Shown: positions 3,115 to 36,921 of the stretch, piece after piece
Numbering within the stretch: the first letter of the stretch is position 1
Layout: every line of letters begins with the position of its first letter
Source of the DNA: Ferruginibacter sp.
GTDB taxonomy: Bacteria; Bacteroidota; Bacteroidia; Chitinophagales; Chitinophagaceae
Reading direction: 5' to 3'
Assembly: GCA_025963635.1 (NCBI GenBank)
Contig: JAOQAK010000060.1
Location: forward strand, 23,575 to 87,574
DNA length: 64,000 nucleotides
The notes under the pieces: generated by a model
Told to the model about the DNA's origin: nothing
Seen by the model: only the letters and a program-made list of their open reading frames with translations
The model's database searches: none
Made by a program: the position numbers and the translations under genes

Positions 3115-3120
3115 ATCAGA

Positions 3121-3460
3121 AAGGTTAAAGGTTGATGGTTGATGATTGAAGGTTTATGGTGGTTGTTGATGGTTGGTCGTTGATGGTTGACGGTTGAAAC
3201 TTGTTTGCTAATAACTCTCACTTTCTACCTCTCACCTTCTACCTTTTGCCTTTTTGCCCGTTGCCAATAGCTTTAACAGCACAATAGGGCGATGCAACGA
3301 TGCTCATCTTTAATCTATCGCCTGGTCATAGTTTTTTTTTACATTTTCTTTTCTACAACTTTCAACGAATGCAATCTTTAACTTTCGAATTTTCACATTT
3401 TCGAATTTTCACATTGGCTAATTTGCACATTAGCTAATTAGCATATTAGCTAATTGAATT
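3121..3460. repeat. Intergenic composite: 7-mer arrays, a conserved ~130-bp core and 8-mer arrays (copy 1; copy 2 at 7321-7659)
   Basis: GGTTGAW array 3121-3200, CCTTCTA-type array 3215-3265, core ttgccaatagctt..gggcgatgcaa..atgctcat..taatctatcg at 3261-3320, and TTTCGAAT/CACATTAG 8-mers at 3385-3460. Confidence 0.8.
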
Positions 3461-3461
3461 T

Positions 3462-11599: not shown

Positions 11600-12856
11600 T
11601 TAAGGTCCCTTCAAAACGAGTTCCTGGATATTTCCATAGTTTTCATAACTGCTGGTGATTACCTTATCGCCTGCTTTCAATCCCTGCAACACTTCATAAT
11701 AATCAGGATTTTGGCTACCAAGCTGAATATCTACTTTATAAGCCATCGTGCCATTATCGTTTACTTTGAATATCCAGTTACCGCCGGTTTGCTGGTAAAA
11801 ACCGCCCTTACTTACCAATAATGCATTTCTTTCATCACTTAAAGCAAGATGGATCTGGAGGGTTTGCCCCCGCCTGAGGCCTGATGGGATGCTATCATTG
11901 AACTCCATATCTACCTGGAACCTGCCGCCGGTAACTTGTGTAAACACTTTCTTAATGGTAAGTTTATAATTTTTGCCGGCAATGGGACAATCCCCTACAA
12001 GGCCAATGAAAACACGTGAAATATAATGTTCATCTACGTTAACTCTTGCCTTGAACCCACTCATCACATCAATCTGCCCGAGGCGTTCGCCTTTGTTTTT
12101 ATTCTGGCCGATCTCCACGTCAAGCGAGGTTAGTTGCCCGTCAACCGGTGAGCGTACGATCAGGTCGCCCACCTTTTTGCGCATTAGTTGCAACGTATTT
12201 TGCATGCGTTCGTAAGACTCCCTGGCTTGTGCCACCTGCAATTTCATTGAGCTTCCATCCTGTTTCAAAATATCTTCTGCTAATTTTTTTCTGCCTACCT
12301 GGTAATTGTACAGGTTAAGACTGGATTCATATTCCTGTTTACCGATCACTTTTTGAGCGTATAACTTTTTATTTACATTATATACTCTTTCTGCTTCTTT
12401 TAAGGCATTGTCCACATCTGCCATCTGCGTTTGCCGGTTCATTGAGTTTTGTTCCGCCACATTTTTAGTGTTCTGCATTTGTGTCAACACATCAAACACG
12501 GCAGTTTCCTGGTTGGCCAAACTTAATTCGAGATCGGTATTGCTTAACCGTAAAATCGGTTGGCCTTTTTTCATGATGGCGCCATCCTCTACGTATTTTT
12601 CTTCTACTCTGCCGCCTTCCATTGCATCCAGGTAAATAGTAGTAACGGGAAGCACCACCCCATCCACCGGTATAAATTCCTGGAAAGGACCCTGCTTCAC
12701 TTCGCTGATGGTAATACGGTCAGTTACTACGTTCAGTTTTGATTTGCCCGAAGAAAAATATACGCTGGCCGTTAACAATGCTACCAGCGCTACAGACCCG
12801 CCAATCATCATGATCCGTTTACTATTCCAAAGTTTTTTTTCTATTACCCTGTCCAT
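11600..12856 (-). CDS. Efflux RND/ABC transporter periplasmic adaptor subunit (HlyD/MacA family)
   Basis: 418 aa. MDRVIEKK start with an N-terminal TM, lipoyl halves GGRVEEKYVEDGAIMKKGQPI and RSPVDGQLTSL, a coiled-coil hairpin, and C-terminal GLKAGDKVITS. Confidence 0.93.
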   Translation of the reverse strand: MDRVIEKKLWNSKRIMMIGGSVALVALLTASVYFSSGKSKLNVVTDRITISEVKQGPFQEFIPVDGVVLPVTTIYLDAMEGGRVEEKYVEDGAIMKKGQPILRLSNTDLELSLANQETAVFDVLTQMQNTKNVAEQNSMNRQTQMADVDNALKEAERVYNVNKKLYAQKVIGKQEYESSLNLYNYQVGRKKLAEDILKQDGSSMKLQVAQARESYERMQNTLQLMRKKVGDLIVRSPVDGQLTSLDVEIGQNKNKGERLGQIDVMSGFKARVNVDEHYISRVFIGLVGDCPIAGKNYKLTIKKVFTQVTGGRFQVDMEFNDSIPSGLRRGQTLQIHLALSDERNALLVSKGGFYQQTGGNWIFKVNDNGTMAYKVDIQLGSQNPDYYEVLQGLKAGDKVITSSYENYGNIQELVLKGP

Positions 12857-12944
12857 TTTTTTATCGTGTTACTTTTGTTTTAATCTGGTACGGCGGTCTT
12901 CTGTACAACTGTTCATCAACCCACCGATTTTTCTTACTTCATTA

Positions 12945-12960
12945 TACAAAGCCATGCCAA
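12945..12960 (-). promoter_or_regulatory. Putative sigma54-type promoter of the efflux operon
   Basis: Minus strand reads TTGGCATGGCTTTGTA. The -24 TGGCA element is good. The -12 element is non-canonical (TTGT, one nt closer than TGGCAC-N5-TTGC). Confidence 0.5.
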
Positions 12961-13010
12961 ATCATAACCAGTTGAATTTCATTTATTTATAGATCAAAGT
13001 TAACTTTTAC

Positions 13011-13049
13011 TGTACGCTATCGATACAACAAGTGTACGGTTTTGATACA
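13011..13049. promoter_or_regulatory. Pair of TGT-N11-ACA operator/enhancer sites, 22-bp period
   Basis: tgtacgctatcgataca (13011-13027) and tgtacggttttgataca (13033-13049). Confidence 0.7.
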
Positions 13050-13124
13050 GTTTCTTTTGCCGGGGTTATGCAGGTAATTTTCATTGCTTTTTTTGCGATC
13101 GCTACCAATGCTTAATGGGTGTTT

Positions 13125-13313
13125 TTAAAAAGAAAAACTTCTTAGCGCAATGCCCTTTTTCCGGCGCTGAATATTCCAGAGATCTGCGACACTGAAAGTT
13201 TTTTGACGGGGCAGATCCATACCGCTTGCCAGGCTTTCCTTCACTTCTGCGGTAAGGTTTGCCAGCGAGCCGGAGCTTAATCTGGAAAACAAAATGTTTG
13301 ACTGCTTTTTCAT
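13125..13313 (-). CDS. Small hypothetical peptide, paralog 2 (MKKQSN...LWNxQR family)
   Basis: 62 aa that align without gaps to 13347-13532 at roughly half identity. Confidence 0.8.
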   Translation of the reverse strand: MKKQSNILFSRLSSGSLANLTAEVKESLASGMDLPRQKTFSVADLWNIQRRKKGIALRSFSF

Positions 13314-24568: not shown

Positions 24569-25123
24569 GTGATAAGTGTACAATTAAATGAACGTTGCCA
24601 GGGTACTTGTGAATTGTGCAATAGTGTACCTGCTGTGCATGAATATACCGTAAGTCCAAAAAAAGATGGCCTCACTGAAAACGAGGTTGCTCTGTGTGAT
24701 ACTTGTTTAAGTGCAATGGGTGCAAAAGACAAGGGTAATTACTGGCGCTGCCTTGAAGGGAGTATTTGGAATGCAGAGCCCTCGATACAGGCATTAAGTT
24801 ATAGATTGCTTCAAACATATAAAAACGAGGACTGGGCAAATGATGTCATCAACTCGATTGACCTGGATGAAAATACCATACAATGGGCGATGAGTGCTTT
24901 TGAAGTGGCTGATGTTCATAAGGATTCATTTGGAAACCTGCTTGAAAATGGTGATACGGTTGTTTTAACACAAGGGCTGAATGTTAAAGGCACGAGTTTT
25001 ACCGCTGCCAAAGGTACAGTGGTAAAAAAGATAAGATTAGTCACCGATAATACAGAGCAAATTGAAGGAAAGATCAACGATCAAACTATCGTCATTCTTA
25101 CCAGGTTTGTAAAAAAAGGATAA
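24569..25123 (+). CDS. phnA: PhnA/YjdM-family zinc-ribbon protein
   Basis: CELC...CDTC zinc ribbon and the C-terminal PhnA domain KDSFGNLLENGDTVVLTQGLNVKG...KGTVVKKIRL. Confidence 0.85.
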   Translation: MISVQLNERCQGTCELCNSVPAVHEYTVSPKKDGLTENEVALCDTCLSAMGAKDKGNYWRCLEGSIWNAEPSIQALSYRLLQTYKNEDWANDVINSIDLDENTIQWAMSAFEVADVHKDSFGNLLENGDTVVLTQGLNVKGTSFTAAKGTVVKKIRLVTDNTEQIEGKINDQTIVILTRFVKKG

Positions 25124-25267: not shown

Positions 25268-25834
<567 letters not shown>

Positions 25835-25868
25835 ACTTTTGTATTTATTGCTGTTGAAATCGAAAATA

Positions 25869-26447
25869 CTAATCATTTAATCCCTTCCCATTCAGAATTT
25901 GCTGCATACATTTCTCAATCCTCGATTCCCGGGTTTTGGACTGTTTGGGGGCAGAAAAATAAAGAAGGTATCCTCTCTGACGTCCTGGCGTCAGAGCTTT
26001 GAAAGCTGTTCTCAAGGCGGAAATTTTATCTAATTTATTTTGAAACTCTTCGGGGATGGAGAATTCGGCGGTCTTTTTTAAATCCACTTTGAAACCGGCT
26101 TTTTCCACTTCGATGGCTTCATAAATATAAACTTTCAGGATGGCTTGCATTTGAACTATTTCCCGAACATTCGTAAACCTGATCTGCCGCGCTGCCTGCA
26201 CACGCTCCGTTTGTTGAATTAGAATACCATTGACATCCTTCAATAAGGCACCCTTGAAAAACAAAAGCGCACAGTACTCTTTAAACACATGTATTAGAAC
26301 GATGTTACTTTTCTGCAACGTGTAACAAGGAACACCCCATTTCAATTCTTCTGTGAGCCCACAGCCAAGAACGATGATTCTTAATTGCTCCAGTTCCTCC
26401 TGCCAGCTTTTGGCTTTAGTAAAATAAAAATCAACTTTAGAATTCAT
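25869..26447 (-). CDS. YdeI family protein (DUF1801 + OmdA domain)
   Basis: LTEELKWGVPCY, HVFKEYCALLFFKG, AFKALTPGRQRGY...AKQSKTRESRIEK. Confidence 0.9.
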   Translation of the reverse strand: MNSKVDFYFTKAKSWQEELEQLRIIVLGCGLTEELKWGVPCYTLQKSNIVLIHVFKEYCALLFFKGALLKDVNGILIQQTERVQAARQIRFTNVREIVQMQAILKVYIYEAIEVEKAGFKVDLKKTAEFSIPEEFQNKLDKISALRTAFKALTPGRQRGYLLYFSAPKQSKTRESRIEKCMQQILNGKGLND

Positions 26448-26464
26448 TTTATTTGTTTTTGTAA

Positions 26465-26854
26465 TTAAACTGCCTGGATATTTACCATGGTTCTATTTGC
26501 AGGTCTGAAATACCAGGACAAAATAATAAAAACAGTCTGCATAAATGGTCCAATAATTCCCTTTGCTGCATAATCGCCGCTTGCCAAATGCGAAACAATC
26601 GCCCCGGTCATGATAAAAAAGAAACCTGCATAGGCCCATTCTTTAACAAGTGTAAATCGCGGGATTAAAATAGCGGCTACGCCAAGTATTTTCCACACAC
26701 CAATGATGTAGAGGAAATATAATGGATATCCTAAAGGAACAACTAAATCAACCATCGCTTTTGTTTGAAATATTTGCGCCAGGCCACTTCCCAACATGCC
26801 AACGGCCATCAAAGCTGTTGCAATCCAGTAGACAATTAATTTTCTCTTTTCCAT
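26465..26854 (-). CDS. DoxX-like family membrane protein
   Basis: LGYPLYFLYIIGVWKILG...KEWAYAGFFF. Confidence 0.88.
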   Translation of the reverse strand: MEKRKLIVYWIATALMAVGMLGSGLAQIFQTKAMVDLVVPLGYPLYFLYIIGVWKILGVAAILIPRFTLVKEWAYAGFFFIMTGAIVSHLASGDYAAKGIIGPFMQTVFIILSWYFRPANRTMVNIQAV

Positions 26855-26860
26855 AGAATG

Positions 26861-27325
26861 TTATTTTAATTTGCTTACTATGTTTTGTAACCGGTCATGC
26901 GCCATATTAATGCCCTGGGCAAAAGGTAGCTGCAGTATTTGGTCCCGGTAGGCGACTGATCTATATACTACATGCATAATGATTTTACTGGTGTCCTCAG
27001 TAAGTTCTTCAAATTCCAGGAATTCAAGCTGCACGCCAAATGGCGTATTCTCCATTTCAAACGTCCGCGTGATTTTCCGGTTCGGAACAAACTCATGGAT
27101 TACCCCATTGAACCCGTATTTGTTTCCCTTGGGATCGGTTGTTTCAAATTGATAACTGCCGTGCTTTTTATTTTCGAGTTTCAGCACTTTCGTTCCCATC
27201 CATTGCTCAATAATTTCCGGCGCTTCATAAGCTTTGAAAAGTAATTCCAGCGGCAAATCAAATTCTCTTGTTATCATCAATTCCTGTTTGCCGTCCTCGG
27301 CATGAATCTTTGTTTTCTGTTCCAT
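26861..27325 (-). CDS. SRPBCC (AHSA1/START-like) domain protein
   Basis: ELMITREFDLPLELLFKAY, FVPNRKITRTFEME, GINMAHDRL. Confidence 0.88.
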   Translation of the reverse strand: MEQKTKIHAEDGKQELMITREFDLPLELLFKAYEAPEIIEQWMGTKVLKLENKKHGSYQFETTDPKGNKYGFNGVIHEFVPNRKITRTFEMENTPFGVQLEFLEFEELTEDTSKIIMHVVYRSVAYRDQILQLPFAQGINMAHDRLQNIVSKLK

Positions 27326-27326
27326 A

Positions 27327-27647
27327 TTATTTGCTTTTATACTTTTTCATGATTGTTTCTAATTTGTTGAACCGGTCTTCCCACATGTTACGGAATGGCT
27401 CAATGAAGTCAGCTACTTCTTTCATTTTTTTTGCATTGATATGATAGTATATTTCCCTGCCGTTTTGCGCCGGCTCAAGTAATTCGCACTCGGTGAGTAT
27501 TTGCAGGTGTTTGGAAATGGTCGGTCTTGCAGTGTCAAAGTTTGACGCTATTGCACCCGCTGTCATGGTTTGTGAGGCTAACAATAGCAGTATCGCCCTC
27601 CTGGTGGGGTCTGCGATGGCCTGGAAAACATCTCGTCGTAAATTCAT
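27327..27647 (-). CDS. ArsR/SmtB family transcriptional regulator
   Basis: [35 protein letters not shown]. Confidence 0.93.
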
Positions 27648-27649
27648 TA

Positions 27650-27691
27650 GTAGCTATTTGACTACAAATTCACGTGTAGCTATTTAACTAC
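27650..27691. promoter_or_regulatory. Tandem GTAG-N8-CTAC operators upstream of the ArsR gene
   Basis: gtagctatttgactac (27650-27665) and gtagctatttaactac (27676-27691), immediately 5' of the start codon. Confidence 0.7.
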
Positions 27692-27875
27692 GCAAATTTT
27701 TCTATGATTTTTTTCAGGACATTTTTTTCAGGACCGTTCGTTCTTAATCTGAAAAATGCCGGCGGATATTTTCCAAAAAGCCAGCAAAGGATTGCCTCGC
27801 TAAAATTGATTGAGAGATTGAAATGTAGTCAGTTTTACGTTTACGAAATGATAGCCGTTCGTTGCTTTCGTTGTG

Positions 27876-28454
27876 TTACTTCTTGTATTTATTGTCCTTC
27901 CATTTGTTAGTTCCATTTTCGCTGTCCGCTATAAGTTCGTTTAGTCGCTTTATTCTGGTAGTTGCTTGTTTTGCACGCATTACCCAGTGCGTTGAAAGTT
28001 TTCTGTACGAAGGTGCAAGTGATTGAAAATAATCCCACGCTTTTTTATTTTCCTTAAATTGTTTTTCAAATTTTTGGGTAAGTTTTACTTCTTCATTCTC
28101 GTGAGTATATATTTTAGATTTCTCTTCCTTTCTTTTTTCAAAACTTGCAAGCCCTGCTGGTTGCATAAGTCCTTTTCTTGTTAATTCTTCAATTTTTTTG
28201 ATGTTGATTGCGCTCCAAATGCTTGTCGGTTTCCGCTGAGTGAAACGAATCTGGTAGCTATCCTGATCAATAGATTTCCGAACCCCATCTATCCACCCAA
28301 AGCAAAGTGCTTCGTCAACCGCCTGAGACCAGGTCATGCTGAGTTTTCCGCTGCCAACTTTATGAAAGCCAACTACTAATTCAGTTTCTTTTTTATGGTT
28401 TTTCTTTAACCACTTTTGAAAATCAGATTGAGTTGCAAAAAATATTGGTGTCAT
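27876..28454 (-). CDS. YdeI/OmpD-associated family protein
   Basis: WLKKNH, AVDEALCFGWIDG, FTQRKPTSIWSAIN, WVMRAKQATTRIKRL. Confidence 0.9.
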   Translation of the reverse strand: MTPIFFATQSDFQKWLKKNHKKETELVVGFHKVGSGKLSMTWSQAVDEALCFGWIDGVRKSIDQDSYQIRFTQRKPTSIWSAINIKKIEELTRKGLMQPAGLASFEKRKEEKSKIYTHENEEVKLTQKFEKQFKENKKAWDYFQSLAPSYRKLSTHWVMRAKQATTRIKRLNELIADSENGTNKWKDNKYKK

Positions 28455-28478
28455 TAGTTATCTTTTTTAAACATAAGT

Positions 28479-29051
28479 CTACCCGATCTCAATATCGTAT
28501 TTATCCAATAATCCAATAATGCCCGGCATAGAAAATTTTGCTTTTTTGATTTTATTTCTCTCCGGATTTATCGAATAATTAAATGAAGTGCGGAAGTCGG
28601 CTTTCTCCAGGACAGTATTTTCGAAAGTTGCCCTTGTTAAATCGCAATTATCAAAGAGCGATCCTGTTAAGTCGGTTTCAGTAAAATCTACTCCCTGCAT
28701 ACTCGAATTTTTAAAGTTCGTTTTTTTTAATTTTCGTTTGTAAAAGGAAGAAAGATTGAGAACACAATTGTCAAAATCAACAGTAAAGCGGAATTCGCTG
28801 CAATTATCAAAATGTAAGCCCAATAATTTGCAGTCTTTAAATTGAATGTCCTGGAAGCCCGTCTTTGCCAGGTCTGCCAAACTCATATTGCAACTAAAGA
28901 ATTTGCACTGTGAAAAATTGAATTTAGATAAGTTTAGGTTTGAGAAATTGCAGTTTGTAAAGATGCAGTTTTCATACTCCCCGTCTGCGAATCCGGTTGT
29001 GGTATAGTCTACGTTCTGAAATTCCTTGTCTTCGATGTAAGTCTTTTCCAT
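28479..29051 (-). CDS. Pentapeptide repeat-containing protein
   Basis: Continuous A(D/N)LxX-type pentapeptides (CNFSNLNLS, TDLTGSLFDNCDLTRATFENTVLEKADF). Confidence 0.92.
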   Translation of the reverse strand: MEKTYIEDKEFQNVDYTTTGFADGEYENCIFTNCNFSNLNLSKFNFSQCKFFSCNMSLADLAKTGFQDIQFKDCKLLGLHFDNCSEFRFTVDFDNCVLNLSSFYKRKLKKTNFKNSSMQGVDFTETDLTGSLFDNCDLTRATFENTVLEKADFRTSFNYSINPERNKIKKAKFSMPGIIGLLDKYDIEIG

Positions 29052-29084
29052 TCTATGTAAATATTTTAGCAGGTTTTTTTAGCG

Positions 29085-29170
29085 TTGCGCTAACGTTGTG
29101 TGGTAGTGGGCTTTGTTTTGTTCACTATTCAATTAGTTGAAAGATTGCCTAAACTCCACCGGCGAAAGGT
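29085..29170. repeat. Degenerate attC-like element (left arm only)
   Basis: ttgcgctaacgttg at 29085-29098, the same start as the element at 29171. The right arm is not recognisable. Confidence 0.35.
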
Positions 29171-29361
29171 GAGCGCTAACGTTGGCACCACTGAAGAGCA
29201 GGAATTGATGCAGATACTTTCCGGTTAAGATGCTAAATCAATGTGGATTACAAACCGAAGAATAAAGTCTTCATATCAAAATCCTGGCCCTGTTAAAGAC
29301 GATAGAAAGTTAATGTCCAATGCCCGGTCCCGAGTTTTGGCAATACATTATTGGCAGCAGC
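29171..29361. repeat. attC-like imperfect palindromic element A
   Basis: Left arm gcgctaacgttggcaccactgaagagcagga and right arm tcccgagttttggcaatacattattggcagcagc (29328-29361). Confidence 0.65.
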
Positions 29362-29390
29362 ATTTGTTCCTGGTGTTATTAGTCTTTCCG

Positions 29391-29756
29391 TTAAGCATTT
29401 CTCAATATCTTCTCCATCTTTTTGCCTTTCGCCAATTCATCCACCAACTTGTCTAAATACCTTATTTGCTGGGTTAAGGGATTTTCAATTTCTTCCACCC
29501 TGTAGCCGCAAATCACCCCGGTAATGAGGTGTGCATTTGGATTTAGTGTAGCTTTTTGAAAAAGTGTTTTGAAAGTCGCTTTCTCGTCAATCAGCTTTTG
29601 CAGCTTCTTTTCATCAAAACCGGTCAGCCACTCTATTACCTGGTGCAATTCTTCTTTTGTTCTGCCTTTACTCTCAACTTTTTTGATATAGAGCGGATAA
29701 ACTGAAGCGAATACAAGTGCTGCTATTCGCTCATCGTGTTCGGGTGTCGTGTTCAT
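29391..29756 (-). CDS. DUF2200 domain-containing protein
   Basis: FASVYPLYIKKVESKGRTKEEL..VIEWLTG, ITGVICGYRVEEIE, IRYLDKLVDELAKGK. Start taken at ATG 29756. Confidence 0.9.
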   Translation of the reverse strand: MNTTPEHDERIAALVFASVYPLYIKKVESKGRTKEELHQVIEWLTGFDEKKLQKLIDEKATFKTLFQKATLNPNAHLITGVICGYRVEEIENPLTQQIRYLDKLVDELAKGKKMEKILRNA

Positions 29757-29842
29757 AACTGATGATTTATTTGTAACGTTAATTCGCTTCAAATTGCCCT
29801 GTCGGCCAATGTAAAACGTGTTTGAAATGAAAGTAATTTTGC

Positions 29843-30532
29843 TCAAAATTGTCTTGTCACACTAAATAATGCTGTAGTAAATGAAACTCCTTCACTTCCT
29901 CTTGAATAGACAATGTTTGGAGTTGCTTTAATTTTACTATTGATGATTGATATCAAAATGTCCCCTCCTATATTTAGATATAAGTGTTTTGAAAGTTCAA
30001 AAGATACAGATAAAGAAGCTCCATATCCGAAACCTGATCCGGATAATTCATTTTTTTGGGTATTAACGTGTAATTCATTTTTGAATTGAGCATAGCCAAT
30101 AGAAAGATCAAGTTTAAGACTAACATTTGCTGATTTTGTAATTGCATATGAACCTCCCTGAACGATACCAATATAATAAAGAGAAATATTTTCAGAAAAT
30201 CTATGGCTACTTTTAGCATTCATATTATAGTAATCTCCACGTATACCGCTATTAAGTTTATTTAAAATAAAATCATCATCAGTTGAAGTAAGTGAAACCT
30301 GCAATCCCATTTTATATCCGTTGTAGTGTATCGCTTCCGTACCATTTCTAAGCGTATTTAAATATGTTTTCGAATTGTCGATTGTTCTTGTAGAATAGCC
30401 AGCATTTGCCGATATAGCTAATTTGTTTTCTTTCCAAAAACTACTTCGGTTATAATTTGAATGAGACTGACCAATAGATGAGAACGAATGCGCCACGCAT
30501 AAGAAAAATAACAAACTGTGTAACTTTCTCAT
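29843..30532 (-). CDS. Hypothetical secreted protein, probable outer-membrane beta-barrel
   Basis: Signal peptide, alternating amphipathic strands and terminal Phe. Very AT-rich. Confidence 0.55.
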   Translation of the reverse strand: MRKLHSLLFFLCVAHSFSSIGQSHSNYNRSSFWKENKLAISANAGYSTRTIDNSKTYLNTLRNGTEAIHYNGYKMGLQVSLTSTDDDFILNKLNSGIRGDYYNMNAKSSHRFSENISLYYIGIVQGGSYAITKSANVSLKLDLSIGYAQFKNELHVNTQKNELSGSGFGYGASLSVSFELSKHLYLNIGGDILISIINSKIKATPNIVYSRGSEGVSFTTALFSVTRQF

Positions 30533-30590
30533 AATGCGGCAACTTTTTTTTAAATGTGTAATGAATGACGACTACTCTCAAAAAAAATAT

Positions 30591-30798
30591 CTGCTAACGT
30601 TTTGCATTGCTGAAGGGCAGGGAAATAGAATTACTGAAGCACGGGCGACTGAAGCTGCTCATGGCTTTTAAAGTACAAGTTAGATAAAATGATCCATTAT
30701 CATCGTCTGTTAGACCAGGCCTGAAGCCAAATTATTAACCGCGGCTGAAACACAGGATTGTCAAGCCCGTATTTTGGCAATGCATTGTTAGCTGCAAT
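30591..30798. repeat. attC-like imperfect palindromic element B (most intact copy)
   Basis: GCTAAC (30593) gtttt GCATTGC...GCAATGC att GTTAGC (30787-30792), with asymmetric spacers between the inner and outer boxes. Confidence 0.75.
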
Positions 30799-30855
30799 GT
30801 GCTTTTTAAGTTAATGTTCTTACTTTTTGTCTTGTTGTAATTTCAAAAAAAATAT

Positions 30856-31593
30856 CTACGTCAATGGTAATGAGACAAACCATTTCGCAAATGATTCCAG
30901 CCCAATGTGAACTTGAAATATCCATACTATATAAGTAATAAAATATAGGCAAAGAACAAATGGGAATACCCATGTTCCCTTTTTCTGTTTTCTTTCTTTT
31001 ATTATTAGTCCAATAAGCAATGAAAAAATAACTGAAATTGTAATTATGCTTGCGAAATAGAAGAAGTACTCAGAGGTTTCAAATACGTTAAATAGAGCAA
31101 ATAAATTTAGCACCAATCTTGTTAAAGCAGGTTCAATAATTGAAACGCCTGTTGCAATCATTGCTCTTGCATGAATATTGACATTATGCCGATATTTTAT
31201 TGCAATAAAATAAGCCGTCATAAAAACTATAAAGGGTCTGAACTGACCAAATAAATGAAGGTCTAAATCTTTTTCATCAATAGCAGGGCGCCCTTGATGA
31301 ATTATCAAAATAATTGAAATAAGCATCACTGGAAATAATAAATAAGACAACTTACCGATGAATCTGTGAAGTGATAATTTCTTATTTCTTATTAATATAG
31401 GTTGGATGATGAGCATAAGAATCCAAAGTATCATCATAGTAGCATGGAAATGAAAATAAAAATTAAAATCTGCGGTGCCATTAAAGAATTTGGCAAAGTA
31501 AGAAGGCCAAAAACCTAATATGGCAAGTGCAAATAGCCCTACAAAATAATAGCCTGAAATATCAAAGCGCAATTTTGGTGTAATCTTTTCCAT
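30856..31593 (-). CDS. Hypothetical multi-pass membrane protein
   Basis: 245 aa with about 7 TM segments and conserved-looking HFHATMMILWILMLIIQPILI, HRFIGKLS and HARAMIAT. Confidence 0.75.
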   Translation of the reverse strand: MEKITPKLRFDISGYYFVGLFALAILGFWPSYFAKFFNGTADFNFYFHFHATMMILWILMLIIQPILIRNKKLSLHRFIGKLSYLLFPVMLISIILIIHQGRPAIDEKDLDLHLFGQFRPFIVFMTAYFIAIKYRHNVNIHARAMIATGVSIIEPALTRLVLNLFALFNVFETSEYFFYFASIITISVIFSLLIGLIIKERKQKKGTWVFPFVLCLYFITYIVWIFQVHIGLESFAKWFVSLPLT

Positions 31594-31678
31594 TTTGTGT
31601 TTATGATGGTTATTTCATTTTGTATTTGTGTTTCATCTAAAATTTTGAAAGATTGAATTTGCCATAGTTGGAAATGCA

Positions 31679-31983
31679 TTGCAGCTAACATTCATGTTGA
31701 CGCACACTAAAGTAATCTATTACAGCAAGCAACCCAAATACAAACGCTTTAAGGAAAGCGCTCTGTTCGGATACTGGCGGACACAAGAAGTACTGCAATT
31801 TGTAAACAGATGACGACATTTTACGAGGGCCTCATGTTTGGTATTATTTGCAATCATTCAAATGCAAAAATAAAACAAACAAATGACAGAGTCGGGCTCC
31901 CTGGCGGACGAACACCCGCGATTTGGTTTGCAAGCGGATATTGAAGCATTCCTGACTTTTAGCAATGCATTACCAGTGGCAGT
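31679..31983. repeat. attC-like element C (possibly chimeric)
   Basis: Left ttgcagctaac (31679-31689) and right arm tcctgacttttagcaatgcattaccagtggcagt (31950-31983), abutting the stop of 31985-32422. Confidence 0.55.
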
Positions 31984-31984
31984 T

Positions 31985-32422
31985 TTATTTAACAGTTTTG
32001 TTTGTGCTAATTGCAATTCGATTCCACGCATTTATTACCACAACAGCCATTATGATTTGGGCAATGTAATTTTTGTCAAAGTGTTTTTCTGCCTGTTGAT
32101 AGGTTTTGTCTGACAGACCGTTTTTATGAATCAGCGTTATTTCTTCGGTTATTGCTAAAATAACTTTTTCTTCCTCGGTAAATAATTCTGTCTCTTTCCA
32201 GGCGTTGAGTAAGAAAATCCGTTGAGCCGTTTCTCCTTGTTTCAATGCGTCAGTAGTGTGCATATTGATACAAAAGGCACAACCGTTCATTTGAGAGGCA
32301 CGGATTTTTATCAGTTCGTAATGGGTTGCAGAAAGTTGAGCGTTTTGCAGATAGTTTTCTAAAGCAAACATTTGCTTGTATGCAGTAGGTTCCAGTTTTT
32401 GAATGTCTATTCGATTTTCCAT
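31985..32422 (-). CDS. Carboxymuconolactone decarboxylase / AhpD family protein
   Basis: ELIKIRASQMNGCAFCINMH CxxC motif and INAWNRIAI. Confidence 0.92.
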   Translation of the reverse strand: MENRIDIQKLEPTAYKQMFALENYLQNAQLSATHYELIKIRASQMNGCAFCINMHTTDALKQGETAQRIFLLNAWKETELFTEEEKVILAITEEITLIHKNGLSDKTYQQAEKHFDKNYIAQIIMAVVVINAWNRIAISTNKTVK

Positions 32423-32445
32423 ATTACTTCGATTTTTACTTTTGG

Positions 32446-32490
32446 CAAAGATAAAACCCCGGTTTGTGGAAAATCTTAAACTGGTTTAAG
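32446..32490 (-). promoter_or_regulatory. -7 promoter box plus a palindromic operator for the CMD gene
   Basis: TATCTTTG on the minus strand (32446-32453) and the palindrome CTTAAAC-TG-GTTTAAG (32475-32490) overlapping the Crp stop codon. Confidence 0.6.
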
Positions 32491-33061
32491 AGCGTAATTT
32501 CTTTTTTATTTCACTCAGATATTCTGGTGTCATATTAAGGTATGAAGCCAATAAGTGTTGTGGGATTCTTTTCGCAAATTCCGGATAGTTTTCATAAAAA
32601 TGCTGATAAATTTCTTCTCCCGAAAAATCGTAAAGATATTTTGTCCGAAGCAGCGATGCAGCATATGCCCTTTGATTAATCAATCTAAAATAGCGTTCGA
32701 GTTGGGGAAACTTTCCGAGTAGTTCTTCCTGGTGTTGATAGTCGATTGCCAAAACATTGGTTGCTTCGACTGCCTGGATGGTAAATTCGGTTTTAGTTTG
32801 GCTTTCAAAAGCGAAATAATCGGTTATCCACCAATTTTCAATGGCAAATTGAATAGTTTGTTCTACCCCTTTTTGGTTCACAAAAAACATTCTCAAGCAT
32901 CCTTCGGTTATGAAAAAATTGAGTTTACAATAGGTGTTTTCGTTGATGAGGTTGGCTTTTTTTGAGAAAGTTTTTGGCTGGAAGAAATTCAGGATTTCAG
33001 TTTCGTGTTGTGTATCAATTGCAACGTATTTTTTAAAATGTTCGATAAGCTTTTCAGACAT
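32486..33061 (-). CDS. Crp/Fnr family transcriptional regulator
   Basis: FITEGCLRMFFVNQKGVEQTIQFAIENWW cNMP-binding domain and IPQHLLASYLNMTPEYLSEI HTH. Start taken at ATG 33061. Confidence 0.92.
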   Translation of the reverse strand: MSEKLIEHFKKYVAIDTQHETEILNFFQPKTFSKKANLINENTYCKLNFFITEGCLRMFFVNQKGVEQTIQFAIENWWITDYFAFESQTKTEFTIQAVEATNVLAIDYQHQEELLGKFPQLERYFRLINQRAYAASLLRTKYLYDFSGEEIYQHFYENYPEFAKRIPQHLLASYLNMTPEYLSEIKKKLRS

Positions 33062-33070
33062 AACTTCGAT

Positions 33071-33332
33071 GCTTAACGTTGTTTGGGTAAATGCGACTGA
33101 CACTCGTAATCATGCAGGCTAAACTAACCTATTACGGCAAGCGACGCAAATATAAACTACTTCCCCAATCTCTATAATGGCTAAAAGGCATTCCGCCGCA
33201 ACAAGAGATATTTTATGCAACAAATAAACAGCTATCGGCGAGAAGAGCACTGGAGCTAAAACCGGACGAAGAACAATTAGAAAAACAAATCGAAAATTAC
33301 CGATGCAGTATTGCCTAAGTTTCAACTAAACT
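33071..33332. repeat. Possible attC-like element D (degenerate)
   Basis: Left GCTTAAC gttg at 33071 (fits RYYYAAC). The right arm is not convincingly recognisable. It occupies the intergenic gap downstream of 33338-33823. Confidence 0.3.
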
Positions 33333-33337
33333 GCTGG

Positions 33338-33823
33338 CTAAATATTATTCCCAGGCTGGTCGTATTGGATTTTATTAGAACTGAAATATTCAATTGCTGC
33401 CTGTATTTCCTCGACGGACTTATCTAATGTCGGCGAAAGAGAAATTTCAACGCTGTCTGCTATTCCTGTCTCGATGCGATAGTATTCAATGTATAACGAA
33501 AACTTAACTTCAAAGCCTTGCTCCGGGTCAACCTCTTCAGTGTAGGCCTGTATAAATCGATCCGAGGAAGTTATCAATTTTTTGTAATAAAATATACCAC
33601 CCTCATCAATCCTGAAAACTTCAGTACGACGAGTACCCGCATAAATAGCGCCAATGCTGGGTACTAAATAAAGTGCAATGAATGTAATGTAGTCAGGAAT
33701 GTCAAATATCTTCTGGCCCCTTATTGTAATTATTACCCCAACGAAAATTGATAAAAAAATTGCCGCGAATAATAAATTAAAGAAAAGAGACTGTCTTACG
33801 ATGAGACTATTGTTGCTTTTCAT
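33338..33823 (-). CDS. Hypothetical membrane protein (two N-terminal TMs)
   Basis: 161-aa ORF with TM segments followed by a soluble PH-like tail. Confidence 0.6.
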   Translation of the reverse strand: MKSNNSLIVRQSLFFNLLFAAIFLSIFVGVIITIRGQKIFDIPDYITFIALYLVPSIGAIYAGTRRTEVFRIDEGGIFYYKKLITSSDRFIQAYTEEVDPEQGFEVKFSLYIEYYRIETGIADSVEISLSPTLDKSVEEIQAAIEYFSSNKIQYDQPGNNI

Positions 33824-33910
33824 GAAAAATCTGCGTGGGCAGGTATAGGTTTTAATTATGGCTAATCAAGATTTCTGATCACTTACTAAACTTCGGGGTA
33901 ACAATTCCAG

Positions 33911-33943
33911 TCCTGGCTTCGACAATGCATTTTTAGTGATAGT
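33911..33943. repeat. attC-like element E, right arm only
   Basis: tcctggcttcgacaatgcatttttagtgatagt aligns with the 34-bp right arms at 29328, 30765 and 31950. Confidence 0.55.
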
Positions 33944-33985
33944 TTTATAACCTTTCATAATAGCTATTTTTTAGTTTGGCTGTAT

Positions 33986-34552
33986 TTACTTTGTTTTAAT
34001 GAAGTTGTTGTATTTGTTTACAATTTGGATAATATGCACTTCGTTATAAACATTGTGTTTGATCTTACTCGCCAATTCCGGATAATCCTTTAAGTATTCG
34101 CTTAATTTTCGTCTGAATGGAAAGAAAAAGTTACCAACATCATAAATAAAAAGCTGGTCAGTATCCTCTTTTTGAAGAAGCACTTTATAAGAACTTCCTG
34201 CCTGGGGACCTCCATAAGACTCCATTTCGTAATAAGATAGAAACCCCTTAATTTTTATTTGAAAGAACCCCTTCCTTTCCTTCTTATCCGAGAGATATTT
34301 AGATTCATATATTTCTTTTCCAATAACAAACCCTTTTATTTCGGCAGGTGGAAATGGCTGTGGCTGTGCTTCTTCGGTTTGCCTGAACAGAACACTTTCG
34401 TGTACTCTGTATGGGAAGGTATTTCTTAATTTAAGCAAGCCATATATTGTATCATTTTTGTTTGTAACAACAAAGCCGCTGTTATAACCCGTTAGCACTT
34501 GTGATGTCATGCACATTGGAAAGAAGGTAAATGCAATAATTAAAAGTTTCAT
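33986..34552 (-). CDS. Hypothetical secreted protein
   Basis: Signal peptide, GFVVTNKNDTIYGLLK and FRRKLSEYLKDYPELASKI..IVNKYN, typical of small Bacteroidetes exported proteins. Confidence 0.7.
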   Translation of the reverse strand: MKLLIIAFTFFPMCMTSQVLTGYNSGFVVTNKNDTIYGLLKLRNTFPYRVHESVLFRQTEEAQPQPFPPAEIKGFVIGKEIYESKYLSDKKERKGFFQIKIKGFLSYYEMESYGGPQAGSSYKVLLQKEDTDQLFIYDVGNFFFPFRRKLSEYLKDYPELASKIKHNVYNEVHIIQIVNKYNNFIKTK

Positions 34553-34597
34553 TGTGTATATTCTTTTGTATGCTTTGTTAATTTCATCCTCATTTAC

Positions 34598-34804
34598 CTA
34601 TTTTGCCACCACTAATTTTTTCAACTGACTAAATCTAGCCAGGTTATTGCCAGGCTTTATTACAACAGAAAGATAAATGCCGCCTTTTGTTCTGTTAAAT
34701 GAAGTTGAAGAAAAATTTAATTGAGTCGTTACATCTTTCGGAGTTAGTATATACATACTCCCGGTTGTAGCATCAACTGCAATTCCTATTAACACCGAAA
34801 ACAA
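34598..34804 (-). pseudogene. C-terminal fragment of a PEGA-type lipoprotein
   Basis: LIGIAVDATTGSMYILTP matches my recollection of the C-terminal GxxVDxxTGAMYKL motif. The N-terminus is missing. Confidence 0.45.
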
Positions 34805-35204
34805 TTATCCGGCACTGTATACCAGTGATGAACTTAATGATTACGGAAATCAGCGGCCCAGGCATCAGCTTCAAATAATTTTCGCAAAGTAAGCATTTAA
34901 CGGTTTCAAAAACGCCCTGCTATTGTCGAAGTGAAAATAATTAGTGCCTTCGGTTAATAATGCCACATTTTTTGGATGGATTTATACTTCTTTTGCTCCC
35001 GGCTGCTTTTTGAAGGATATTACCGGAGGCAACCATGTAAATGACGTGTTCTTTTTTAACCCGCACAAATAACGCAGCAGTAATTCAACGCTTTTTTGAA
35101 CAGCTGGTGCAGAAGATATCGTAAAGACCTTCCTACAAAAATTTTTCAAAAAATTTTTCAAAAAAAATTACCATTTTTTATTTCGCGAAAGTTTTGTTTA
35201 AGGG

Positions 35205-35297
35205 TGTAAACAAAAACATGTTTACATGCATCTTGTTTACACTATTGTAAACAAAGCATGTGTAAACAAAAAAATGTTTACAAGGGTTTTGTTTACA
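35205..35297. repeat. Array of seven TGTAAACA/TGTTTACA boxes with a 56-bp super-period
   Basis: Boxes at 35205(F), 35219(R), 35234(R), 35246(F), 35261(F), 35275(R) and 35290(R). Confidence 0.9.
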
Positions 35298-35441
35298 CTT
35301 TTATTTTTTGCAACGCTATAAAAATGTGTATTCTAAGGGCAAAAAACAAACGGTGGTGGGTGTTTTTTATGGATCAATACCGGTATTAACTTTCGCGGCC
35401 AGCCATTTTTTGGAGATGAGCCCTACCCTGCTTCACCTGCA

Positions 35442-35494
35442 CACAGCCAACACGGCAGTCTCCGATCGCATGCAATACTGCCGTTAGCGCTGTG
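35442..35494. repeat. 53-nt imperfect hairpin with GCCAAC...GTTAGC ends
   Basis: cacagc caac acggcagt (17-nt loop) actgccgt tagc gctgtg. Confidence 0.6.
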
Positions 35495-36053
35495 ACAAAC
35501 ATTATTCTAAAAAACAAGCAAAAGCCTTACCAGTAGCTAAATACAGCCAATTCAAACCTGCGACCGGTAGCGTAAGTTTTATAAAGCAGGGGCAAAACGG
35601 CGCCTCGCCAGGTGCAGGCCGCGGGAAAAGAAACCAGCTATCATTAAAGAAAAATACCGGCAGGGAACTGCTACCGAACGCTTGTTGCAAACCCTGGCGG
35701 GTTTACCCGTGAACCAAACAAGAAAACAACAACGCTGGAATGAGGAGCAGCGTCACCACACATAGAAAAAAATGGAAACCAAACATTGGATGCTGCAAAA
35801 AAAATCAGAAGCCGCCACCGGATTTTTGCCATACGAAGCAATTTTTTGGGGAAATTCAATAAAAGAAAAATGCCTGCCGGCAACCCTTTAACATCGATGG
35901 CACGTTGGTTTATTAGGGGGAGAAGCTAAAGATAGCAACCACCGCGCCAGCGTTGGCAAACCCCCGCGGCGGTTATCGCTAGATTTATAGCGATTTTAAT
36001 GTTGTCCGGATGCAACGGGTTATTTTTTTTAACATTTCCCATTTTCCTGAATA

Positions 36054-36136
36054 TTCAAGCCCGTCAGGGTTGAGGGCTGCACCATTAGAACCATTGGTTT
36101 CACCAACGGCTATTCATATTGAAGGCCTTTGGGTTT
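36054..36136. repeat. REP-like three-hairpin element, copy 1
   Basis: The 30-bp core ccattggtttcaccaacggctattcatatt (36091-36120) is identical to 47226-47255 and is flanked by CCC..GGG hairpins. Confidence 0.85.
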
Positions 36137-36255
36137 GCTTGGGCAATTCAAATAACAATTGTTTGACCAGGAGCTTCAGGAAAACCGCAGAAATGAATAA
36201 TGTTACTCAATGTTATAGCCGAACCGAATGCATAAATCACTGCATAACTAAATCT

Positions 36256-36360
36256 CAATTTGTGTAATTCGTTCTTTCGAATTCGTGCAATGATGTTTCT
36301 CAATTCGTGTAATTCGTGCCATATAATTTGTGTAATTCTTTTTTAATTCGTGTAATAAAG
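36256..36360. repeat. Degenerate 9-bp tandem repeats (AATTCGTGT)
   Basis: caatttgtgtaattcgtt..caattcgtgtaattcgtgcc..aatttgtgtaattc..aattcgtgtaat. Confidence 0.8.
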
Positions 36361-36624
36361 TTTCTAAAAACTCGTCTAATAGAATTATTTTCTGTTTCCT
36401 TCCCCACCATTCTCACGACCAATAAAAAGGAAAATCTATTTCTCTCCTCCGCGAACCACGCATGGCAACTTACCAGGCATCTCCATCTGCCTGTCGAGAA
36501 TACTGTATTGAAAAAAATTTACCCAAAAATCTGCTTTCTTCGATCCTCTACCTGTATAAAAATCACCCGGTCATTCCTGCAATGAACCCGCTATCAAGTC
36601 AATTTAATCCATAAACAAAACACC

Positions 36625-36885
36625 ATGAAACGGATATCCACCCTGCTGGCAGCGATCGCAATTTTCACTTCCTGCAATACAACACAATACCTGCACCAAT
36701 CAGGCACTTACACTATTAAAGAAAGAAACGGAGACGTAACCGAATTTTATGAAGTGAAAGGAAGATACAATGTGATGTCAGATACATTGAAACCCAATGA
36801 CAAAATAGTGATCAACCTAATCAAAGCAAGGCCGTTTAAGCAAAGCGCTAAAAGGAAGAGGTATGATTTTGCTAAAAATTTTTGA
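36625..36885 (+). CDS. Small hypothetical lipoprotein
   Basis: MKRISTLLAAIAIFTSC lipobox; 86 aa. Confidence 0.7.
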   Translation: MKRISTLLAAIAIFTSCNTTQYLHQSGTYTIKERNGDVTEFYEVKGRYNVMSDTLKPNDKIVINLIKARPFKQSAKRKRYDFAKNF

Positions 36886-36892
36886 GGTTATT

Positions 36893-36918
36893 CTCAGTAC
36901 TAAGTATTAAGTACTGAG
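36893..36918. terminator. Hairpin between convergent genes (possible bidirectional terminator)
   Basis: ctcagtact-aagtatta-agtactgag, built from AGTACTN heptamers. Confidence 0.5.
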
Positions 36919-36921
36919 TAC

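Follow-up and report, generated by a model that had tools for sequence, protein, structure and literature searches.

A probable, short and partly degraded cassette array of integron-like character in a Ferruginibacter contig and its relatives in Bacteroidota

A stretch of 64,000 nucleotides from Ferruginibacter sp. (contig JAOQAK010000060.1, positions 23,575 to 87,574), which we call the window, contains between 29.05 and 33.99 kb a row of small genes parted by long gaps, and most of these gaps open with a similar, partly palindromic arm. What kind of element are these palindromes, and have the genes between them been moved as units? An earlier note on this DNA had taken them for attC-like sites of a decaying, integron-like gene cassette array, similar to a cluster of attC sites lacking integron integrases (CALIN) and belonging to a recombination-site family of Bacteroidota. 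Our analysis indicates that the window very probably holds a short, partly degraded CALIN-like cassette array of an integron-like system that occurs in Chitinophagaceae and some other Bacteroidota. All positions are those of the window unless another locus is named, and the coding strand of the array is the minus strand.

The region from 28.4 to 34.6 kb carries eight small minus-strand genes with five long intergenic gaps (IG1 to IG5) between them. The attC-like sites in these gaps, with scores from the covariance model described below, are as follows.

29089..29097, minus strand: orphan R' end AACGTTAGC, an exact match to the partner arm GCTAACGTT, 86 nt downstream of the first R' end of IG1
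29168..29361, minus strand: IG1, full-length but decayed attC-like site (51.9 bits, E 6e-13)
30586..30798, minus strand: IG2, intact attC-like site (70.8 bits, E 5e-18), of which the closing stem folds intact
31660..31983, minus strand: IG3, decayed and expanded site, retaining the 5' arm (31950-31983) and R' GTTAGC (31689-31684)
33063..33337, minus strand: IG4, remnant retaining the 3' end ..CCCAAACAACGTT|AAGC (33080-33072), with an unrecognisable 5' arm
33815..33943, minus strand: IG5, truncated remnant with the 5' arm at 33911-33943 (10.1 bits, E 0.13, not significant alone)

All window copies lie on the minus strand just past stop codons. Four of the gaps open with a common arm, which reads ..GC.GCTAAC AATGCATTGCCAAAA..CGGG on the coding strand; the distances from the stop codons are 29, 57, 1 and 42 nt, in agreement with the range of 1-57 nt given in the earlier note, and the sequences quoted there were all found where it had placed them. 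The 21-nt core TTTTGGCAATGCATTGTTAGC, with up to three mismatches, was found twice in the window against 0.01 expected, and the partner arm GCTAACGTT three times (29089, 29175 and 30593) against 0.47 expected. These three partner arms are exact, whereas two others that had been named with them, at 31684 and 33071, exist but are degenerate. Likewise, three of the four 33-34-nt arms that had been aligned form one repeat family (100, 81 and 71% identity), but the match of the fourth arm (33911) is less strong, with 81% identity over 26 nt to the copy at 31963.

The intact palindromic copy that had been described is the IG2 site, which folds with a closing stem of GCTAAC/GTTAGC and TGCATTGC/GCAATGCA. 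On one side it has the boxes R'' (ATTGCAGCTAAC, with AAC at 30789-30787) and L'' (TGCATTGCC), and on the other L' (GCAATGCA) and R' (GTTAGC, with its G at 30598); the centre is variable, and the 3' end is the partner arm GCAATGCAAAACGTTAGC, which matches the 5' arm. In IG1, R'' is mutated to ..GCCAAT, the L box does not pair with its partner at 29175-29200 (the covariance model flags these non-pairs), and the closing stem is absent from the minimum-energy fold. When IG1 is extended to 29080, a long-range stem is restored. The orphan R' end may be either the 3' end of a longer IG1 variant or the relic of a lost cassette. IG3 has lost its L' arm and has a centre of about 290 nt; nhmmer sees only its 5' arm (E 0.0016), and the covariance model gives E 0.2 (31926-31983), while R' and its flank fit the consensus GTTRNNTGCAA. 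IG4 resembles IG3 over 39 nt at 85% identity (blastn, 33157-33119 against 31707-31745), with an AACGTT match, and the 3' part of IG5, ..CCTGCCCACGCAG, merges into the next start codon. That is, two copies are solid and three are remnants, and the full stem is kept in only one of the five, as expected of a decaying array.

The genes themselves, and the gaps between them, are arranged as follows.

28479-29051, minus strand: pentapeptide-repeat protein gene (open reading frame (ORF) list and Pfam)
29052-29390: gap IG1
29391-29756, minus strand: DUF2200 protein gene (Pfam), cassette cargo in the unit 29391..30532
29843-30532, minus strand: outer-membrane beta-barrel protein (OMP) gene (Pfam), cassette cargo in the same unit
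30533-30855: gap IG2
30856-31593, minus strand: 245-aa membrane-protein ORF, cargo of the cassette 30598..31688
31594-31984: gap IG3
31985-32422, minus strand: CMD-family protein gene (Pfam), cassette cargo in the unit 31985..33061
32486-33061, minus strand: Crp-like cNMP-binding regulator (Pfam; 191-aa gene call in the matching Logan contig), in the same unit
33062-33337: gap IG4
33338-33823, minus strand: ORF of 161 aa without family match (ORF list, Pfam), cargo in 33338..34552
33824-33985: gap IG5
33986-34552, minus strand: ORF of 188 aa without family match (ORF list, Pfam), cargo in 33338..34552

The array block has a G+C content of 0.34-0.37 against about 0.41 in the whole window, so the genes are indeed AT-rich. 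They are also co-oriented, but this is not special, because the minus strand carries nearly all genes of the window. There are two units of two genes, namely OMP with DUF2200 and the Crp-like regulator with CMD. Between the genes for OMP and DUF2200, the 86-nt spacer at 29757-29842 contains ..GGGCAAT..AACGTTAC with AACGTT at 29780-29775 (sequence ..GGGCAATTTGAAGCGAATTAACGTTAC), and it may be the last trace of a site that formerly parted two cassettes.

No tyrosine recombinase was found in the 64-kb window by Pfam, six-frame reading, tblastn with 14 recombinases or a motif regular expression, so that the absence of an integrase, which had been claimed for the neighbourhood, holds for the whole window. 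The single tblastn match, a weak one at 24908-25084 (E 0.2), is a PhnA/YjdM gene. A search of the window for the attI motif described below gave only chance-level matches. Since the window contains no recombinase, we regard the array as a CALIN-like remnant, and for the same reason its cassettes probably no longer move, unless they are served by a recombinase from another part of the genome.

We then asked how the sites of the window relate to those of other genomes. The exact pattern AATGCATTGCYAAAANNCRGG was scanned across 185,579 species genomes and matched 51 loci, about 28 of them in Bacteroidota (Chitinophagales, Cytophagales, Saprospiraceae and Flavobacteriales), including Ferruginibacter, Ginsengibacter, other Chitinophagaceae and Algoriphagus. 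The remaining matches are about as many as chance would give (about 17 by our own rough estimate, not computed by a tool), which agrees with a family specific to Bacteroidota. The Bacteroidota matches align over about 205 nt with both arms nearly invariant, while the central 140 nt or so falls into at least three unrelated subfamilies without conserved structure; many of the pattern matches stand at the end of a contig.

A profile and a covariance model were built from 17 copies, all of them outside the window. The covariance model found 71 copies in 35 sources, with up to eight co-oriented copies per 10 kb, and it recovered two significant copies in the window, 1.2 kb apart, with IG3 and IG5 only at E 0.1-0.2; a custom covariance model was among the checks that had been proposed for the array. 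Copies adjacent to a recombinase gene score 22-115 bits, so the two window copies are inside the range of presumably active arrays. Co-oriented arrays with a spacing of 0.7-1.5 kb were seen in several of the fetched loci, which we denote by L numbers (five copies in L018, four in L005, and eight each in L056 and L057). Among 61 copies, 49 follow an ORF of at least 60 aa on the same strand, at a median of 18 nt from its stop, and 3 follow an ORF on the opposite strand; an absence of such orientation bias would have spoken for giving up the cassette reading. Most copies are about 205 nt long and those of L148 about 140 nt, a range of 140-210 nt that is longer than a typical attC, as had been noted. 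In the source soil metagenome, the word depth of the IG2 arms is about 3450 against about 12 in the flanks (about 290-fold), and many contigs enter these arms from other sequence, which means that the site family is very abundant in that sample.

The short variant of about 140 nt is found in one lineage (L148, 12085-16322). Isolated extra R'-only 3' ends shortly after full copies were also seen outside the window (L018, 5901-5930), like that at 29089-29097, and these may be ORF-less mini-cassettes or deletion scars.

In related loci the arrays are accompanied by a tyrosine recombinase gene. It lies upstream of the first copy and is co-oriented with it in L016, L020, L044 and L049. The recombinase, of about 370 aa, was found in at least 120 clusters with at least 58% identity, in Lacibacter, Panacibacter, Parafilimonas and Ferruginibacter. 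When the loci were approached from the protein side, copies lay only downstream of the gene and in the same orientation in every lineage with downstream sequence (L053, which is Lacibacter sp. MH-610, L056, L057-L059, L148 and L153). The motif GCGTAnATTTAnGTGTT (..GTGTT), which we call attI, lies about 105 nt past the recombinase stop and is conserved in five lineages.

The bases past attI differ between strains. Six contigs have the identical recombinase P0011 and the same upstream genes, remain identical through ..GCGTATATTTATGTGTT (..TATGTGTT), and then carry four gene sets.

Gene set 1: BsuBI/PstI restriction-modification pair
Gene set 2: MmeI-like enzyme
Gene set 3: ribonucleotide reductase and MamI restriction-modification system
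Gene set 4: D12 methylase and HNH protein

That is, in these related loci, not in the window, the point of strain divergence is right after the conserved ..GTGTT of attI, and each variable part opens with RNNYGC.., like the repeat flank after GTT. In another lineage, P0062, three contigs stop within 300 nt of the recombinase gene, which is the behaviour expected of an assembler at a polymorphic junction. Both the co-occurring recombinase and the shuffled gene content for which the earlier note had advised a search were thus found in related loci, where the genes downstream of the recombinase are not syntenic between strains.

Several features of these loci deserve mention. Restriction-modification systems occupy the first cassette positions in different Lacibacter strains (L057, L058, L059 and L062, 11200-19500), namely BsuBI/PstI with a C5 methylase, MmeI-like, MamI with an N4/N6 methylase, and D12 methylase with HNH; some of these Lacibacter cassettes hold two genes in reverse orientation. 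L010 has a streptomycin adenylyltransferase-family gene (3444-4325, PF04439, E 3e-107) with a copy immediately after it, L053 has a metallo-beta-lactamase-fold gene (12193-12951) just past the first cassette, and L148 has an ArsR-like and MerT/HMA pair (12322-13292) in its array. The Pfam families of the cargo in these three loci suggest resistance functions. A small HTH_3 (XRE-type) gene, which may be a regulator, lies directly upstream of the recombinase gene and is co-oriented with it in L057 (9506-9889), L148 (9590-9985) and L150 (9529-9897), and is absent in L053, L056 and L153. L044 (3900-5663) and L016 represent a second recombinase subgroup of about 590 aa, with an N-terminal extension of about 300 aa that opens with the same HRG..RI..F motif; the sequence past its stop is different and includes tandem GAGCGAAGTCGAAGGATGG repeats.

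Could the arrays simply be remnants of classical integrons, with ordinary attC sites and a true IntI that is mis-aligned or encoded elsewhere, the Xer-like recombinase beside them being incidental? The AAC/GTT boxes, the G|TT boundaries, attI and the arrays are all classical. Moreover, the best NCBIfam match of the L044 protein is TIGR02249 (integron integrase) with 206 bits. For the L020 protein, XerA_Arch comes first (196 bits) and TIGR02249 next (170 bits). In neither protein does TIGR02249 reach its cut-off of 265, each of its matches falls into two pieces, and the scores of the XerA, XerC and XerD models are similar. In the alignment with IntI4 of V. cholerae (2A3V), 33 residues of the recombinase stand opposite 73 of IntI4 (180-252, the region of the IntI-specific domain), whereas the alignment with XerA is gap-free.

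The AlphaFold model has a mean pLDDT of 81 but a pTM of only 0.51, and its Foldseek TM-scores are 0.40-0.55, with equal E-values for XerA (2e-14) and IntI4 (3e-14). It has one helix between the beta-hairpin and the HxLRH helix, and the extra helix is not seen. At the N-terminus an additional domain is modelled, beta-beta-alpha-beta-beta-alpha and about 60-85 aa long, which in our reading would be of the arm type. None of the catalytic residues (R, K, H, R, H and Y) varies among 44 homologues, and neither does a C-terminal SPLD motif, which aligns to the SPLS tail of IntI4 and in this respect speaks for the classical integron. IntI1 ends with this motif as well.

Judged from these alignments and the predicted structure, the recombinase of the related loci is not a canonical IntI, since it lacks the IntI-specific insertion, a point that the earlier note had left open. 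It is also not incidental, because its distance to a conserved attI is fixed in five lineages. The sites are 140-210 nt long, with a 2/4-nt spacer and no bulged bases, which again differs from ordinary attC. We therefore think that a classical integron remnant is an unlikely explanation.

The structure of the sites was predicted by RNAalifold. The closing stem consists of YAAC/GTTR, an unpaired 2/4-nt spacer (AA / AAAC) and a 9-bp L box (TGCATTGCC/GGCAATGCA), and past the L box it continues with AA/TT, G/C and CAGGG/CCCTG, which are parted by the 1x1 mismatches A.C, A.C and T.C. The predicted consensus fold has no single-base bulges or extrahelical bases. AAC/GTT is nearly invariant, being present in 57-59 of about 63 copies. 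In the 71 copies, 90% of cells are paired against 72% after shuffling and 30-50% with the partners slid, and 20 of 27 stem pairs show compensatory changes (for example CG 29, GC 21 and UA 10 at one pair), although these counts are inflated, as the alignment (A3) was fitted to the model structure. We still favour the stem, because swaps of G-C to C-G are hard to explain otherwise.

A further test concerns the ends of the cassettes. If each unit closes into a circle at G|TT, the bases before AAC should pair with the start of the unit's own cassette, whereas a hairpin that stays in place needs no such pairing; the test thus separates an integron from every kind of in-place hairpin. In 32 pairs of neighbouring copies, we compared the 8 nt before AAC with the 8 nt after the preceding GTT, that is, with the unit's own cassette start. 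The complementarity was 5.7/8 on average and mostly 7/8. The same 8 nt compared with their own downstream flank gave 3.3/8, which equals the random value of 3.3, and in 25 of these comparisons the cassette start was favoured over the downstream flank. The rule also holds for first cassettes, where the partner bases are those after attI. This pairing with the own cassette start, and not with the downstream flank, indicates that each unit closes into a circle at G|TT. In the Lacibacter array, a duplication of 964 bp with 99% identity begins right after CGTT and ends with CCGTTAG.

In the window, GTT|AGCTGCAAT (31689-31678) is the reverse complement of ATTGCAGCT|AAC (30798-30787) at 12 of 12 positions. 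This agreement of the ends identifies the following complete cassette.

30598..31688, minus strand: complete cassette, which starts with TT AGCTGCAAT after the G of the preceding R' and ends at the G of its own site's GTT

No other cassette retains both matching ends and an intact site; in the remaining sites either one arm or the stem is gone, and the ends of the Crp-CMD unit do not match (2/8, by our own reading).

These results also bear on the view that the elements are intergenic palindromic repeats (REP/BIME-like or MITE-like elements, terminators or mRNA stabilisers) and not recombination sites. The copies do form long hairpins downstream of stop codons, a T run follows the intact window copy, and a group II intron, of a type that favours terminators, sits at the base of one copy. 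In contrast to what such repeats would show, the flanks pair with the own cassette start rather than the adjacent flank; there are no target-site duplications, the flanks being inverse complements of the neighbouring unit's flank and not direct repeats; and the copies are not scattered but follow ORFs in ordered arrays. The window shows no enrichment of terminator-like sites (8 against 5.0 +/- 2.5 expected), and none of them lies at the arms. An intrinsic terminator is a short G+C-rich hairpin with a T run behind it, whereas the elements measure about 200 nt and most copies have no T run. The folding energy of the whole element, as RNA or DNA, is no better than that of shuffled sequences (z = -0.35 for the intact copy); what counts is the closing stem alone. 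Finally, the strain-specific content begins exactly at GTT beside the recombinase. Neither the MITE nor the plain terminator, which had been named as possible refutations, is borne out, and the palindromic repeat is in our view very unlikely.

Least probable of all is that mobile genes carry a structured non-coding RNA or 3'-UTR element with only a secondary link to the recombinase: the arms are highly conserved across genera and their stem pairs covary, but the site in the window has no Rfam 15 family at the gathering or E-value thresholds (a ctRNA match of E 0.95 is outside the elements), the central 140 nt of at least three unrelated subfamilies has no conserved structure, and what is conserved is the crossover site, with invariant AAC/GTT and the boundaries of duplication and strain divergence at GTT.

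The behaviour of the units is that of integron logic. Beyond this, we are inclined to think that the arrays belong to a separate integron lineage in Chitinophagaceae and some other Bacteroidota, with an IntI/Xer-related recombinase that has an arm-type N-terminal domain and no IntI insertion, with folded sites of about 200 nt without extrahelical bases, and with a G|TT crossover. The layout itself is seen directly in complete loci: the recombinase gene, which codes for about 370 aa and in one subgroup for about 590 aa, has attI about 105 nt past its stop, and co-oriented cassettes come next. Each cassette starts with TT-RNNTGCAA, usually carries one ORF, reaches TTGCNNNY-AAC and ends, about 140-200 nt later, with G. 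The attC-like site may act as a folded single strand, with a stem of AAC/GTT, the 2/4-nt spacer, the 9-bp L box and the further pairs. The recombinase would cut at G|TT, excise cassettes as circles and reinsert them at attI. The outcome would be a shuffling of strain-specific accessory genes, including restriction-modification systems and the Pfam families suggestive of resistance.

Several points weigh against this interpretation. The folding of a single strand and the exact cut within GTT are inferred by analogy, and the inflation of the pairing counts by alignment A3 has been mentioned above. No excised circle or recombination junction was seen, and the contigs of the one soil run that contains the window show no joints. 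The window has only two significant copies, one of them intact. No relative was found that is close enough for a test of cassette turnover, the window being present in one soil run only; 80 metagenome loci with the neighbouring ATP-grasp gene (at most 77% identity) share no other gene and no repeats with it. Homologues of the membrane-protein cargo in three other genomes stand in ordinary, repeat-free contexts with different neighbours. The IntI insertion is held necessary for integron activity in the part of PMC4889954 that cites Messier and Roy 2001. A recombinase that has no such insertion may therefore act by a chemistry different from that of integrons.

How does this system compare with known ones? 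Sedentary chromosomal integrons, such as the V. cholerae superintegron with its VCR attC of about 120 nt, likewise have a single recombinase gene with an adjacent attI, long arrays of co-oriented and mostly single-ORF cassettes, similar lineage-specific sites that form an imperfect hairpin closed at its base by AAC...GTT, a G|TT crossover with cassette ends that match on circularisation, and strain-variable content including restriction-modification systems. In contrast to them, the recombinase here has no IntI insertion but an extra N-terminal domain, the sites are 140-210 nt long, and in the predicted fold the spacer is 2/4 nt and the A.C, A.C and T.C mismatches take the place of extrahelical bases. 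That is, the features of integrons found here are the R''/R' and L boxes of attC, attI with insertion at G|TT, circularisable cassettes and strain-variable arrays, whereas the additional IntI-specific domain near patch III, the attC length of about 57-141 nt and, as far as the predicted fold shows, the extrahelical bases and the central spacer of 5-6 nt are not.

In pdif modules of Acinetobacter plasmids (XerC/XerD), accessory genes are also bounded by sites for an Xer-type recombinase without the IntI domain. The pdif sites, on which the housekeeping Xer acts, are double-stranded, measure 28 bp and alternate in orientation, and they have no attI, hairpin or ordered array. Treponema integrons differ from the system described here in that they are known to have a canonical IntI and attC sites of ordinary length. 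They share with it the co-orientation of the recombinase gene with the cassettes and an attI downstream (PMC3607928). Like a CALIN (PMC4889954), the window has at least two significant sites 1.2 kb apart, with remnants, and no recombinase within 29 kb on either side; a CALIN is defined by the canonical attC model, whereas the sites here were found by a family-specific one. The operational definition of an integron requires the IntI-specific region, and attC-adjacent recombinases without it are not counted as IntI (PMC4889954).

In Bacteroidetes, IntegronFinder 2.0 reported nothing but In0 elements apart from a single complete integron, that of Salinibacter (PMC9024848), and a 2024 preprint listed Bacteroidota among the clades without integrons (10.1101/2024.07.02.601686). 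No account of integrons or attC-like arrays in Chitinophagaceae turned up in the literature searched, which left out most subscription journals, so that a prior description is possible. The logic, which is that of sedentary integrons, is of a known kind; apparently new are the recombinase without the IntI domain and the long sites without bulges in their predicted fold, and the window is a degraded member of this system.

If this reading is true, cassette capture requires neither the IntI-specific domain nor bulged bases, and tools of the IntegronFinder type would miss a very large cassette pool of soil and freshwater, including restriction-modification, ANT(6)-like, metallo-beta-lactamase-fold and MerT-like domain genes. 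Integrons are the textbook system of gene capture, and both their definition and the software rest on the IntI-specific domain and the canonical attC model. A functioning system of cassettes in which both recombinase and site are built differently would broaden that definition. It would serve as a natural experiment for asking how folded DNA is recognised by a tyrosine recombinase, and how a strand is chosen when extrahelical bases are missing. It would also bring to light a pool of mobile accessory genes, so far unsurveyed, in bacteria that abound in soil and water. In the window, the low-G+C block of unrelated small genes would be explained as captured and now decaying cassettes.

The group II intron mentioned above is in L009 (about 2917-4812, plus strand), antisense to the cassettes, with a reverse transcriptase and maturase ORF at 3474-4715 and Rfam domains at 2946-3047 and 4733-4808. 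It is inserted exactly at the base of the attC-like hairpin (..GGCAATGCATT|GTGTG..), replacing the AAC box, and resembles the group IIC-attC introns of classical integrons.

As for the surroundings of the array in the window, a gene neighbouring it has a T9SS sorting domain by Pfam, which assigns the window to Bacteroidota, and the best named matches of one cargo gene are in Flavihumibacter and Ferruginibacter. A tRNA scan of the window gave none. Directly upstream, 34553-36921 is a stretch of 2.4 kb with higher G+C and no convincing ORF, in which Rfam gave only a chance-level ctRNA match and no recombinase remnant was found; it contains a cluster of palindromic TGTAAACA/TGTTTACA boxes with two 43-nt direct repeats (35204-35302) and five iteron-like AATTCGTGTAAT repeats (36253-36368). 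Directly downstream, 25268-29051 holds seven small genes on the minus strand, in close succession and without intervening repeats (DUF4256, DUF1801/YdeI, DoxX-like, AHSA1-like, ArsR, YdeI-like and pentapeptide). The DUF4256-DUF1801 pair occurs again in Algoriphagus (L042; 66% and 35% identity), about 5 kb from an attC-like copy.

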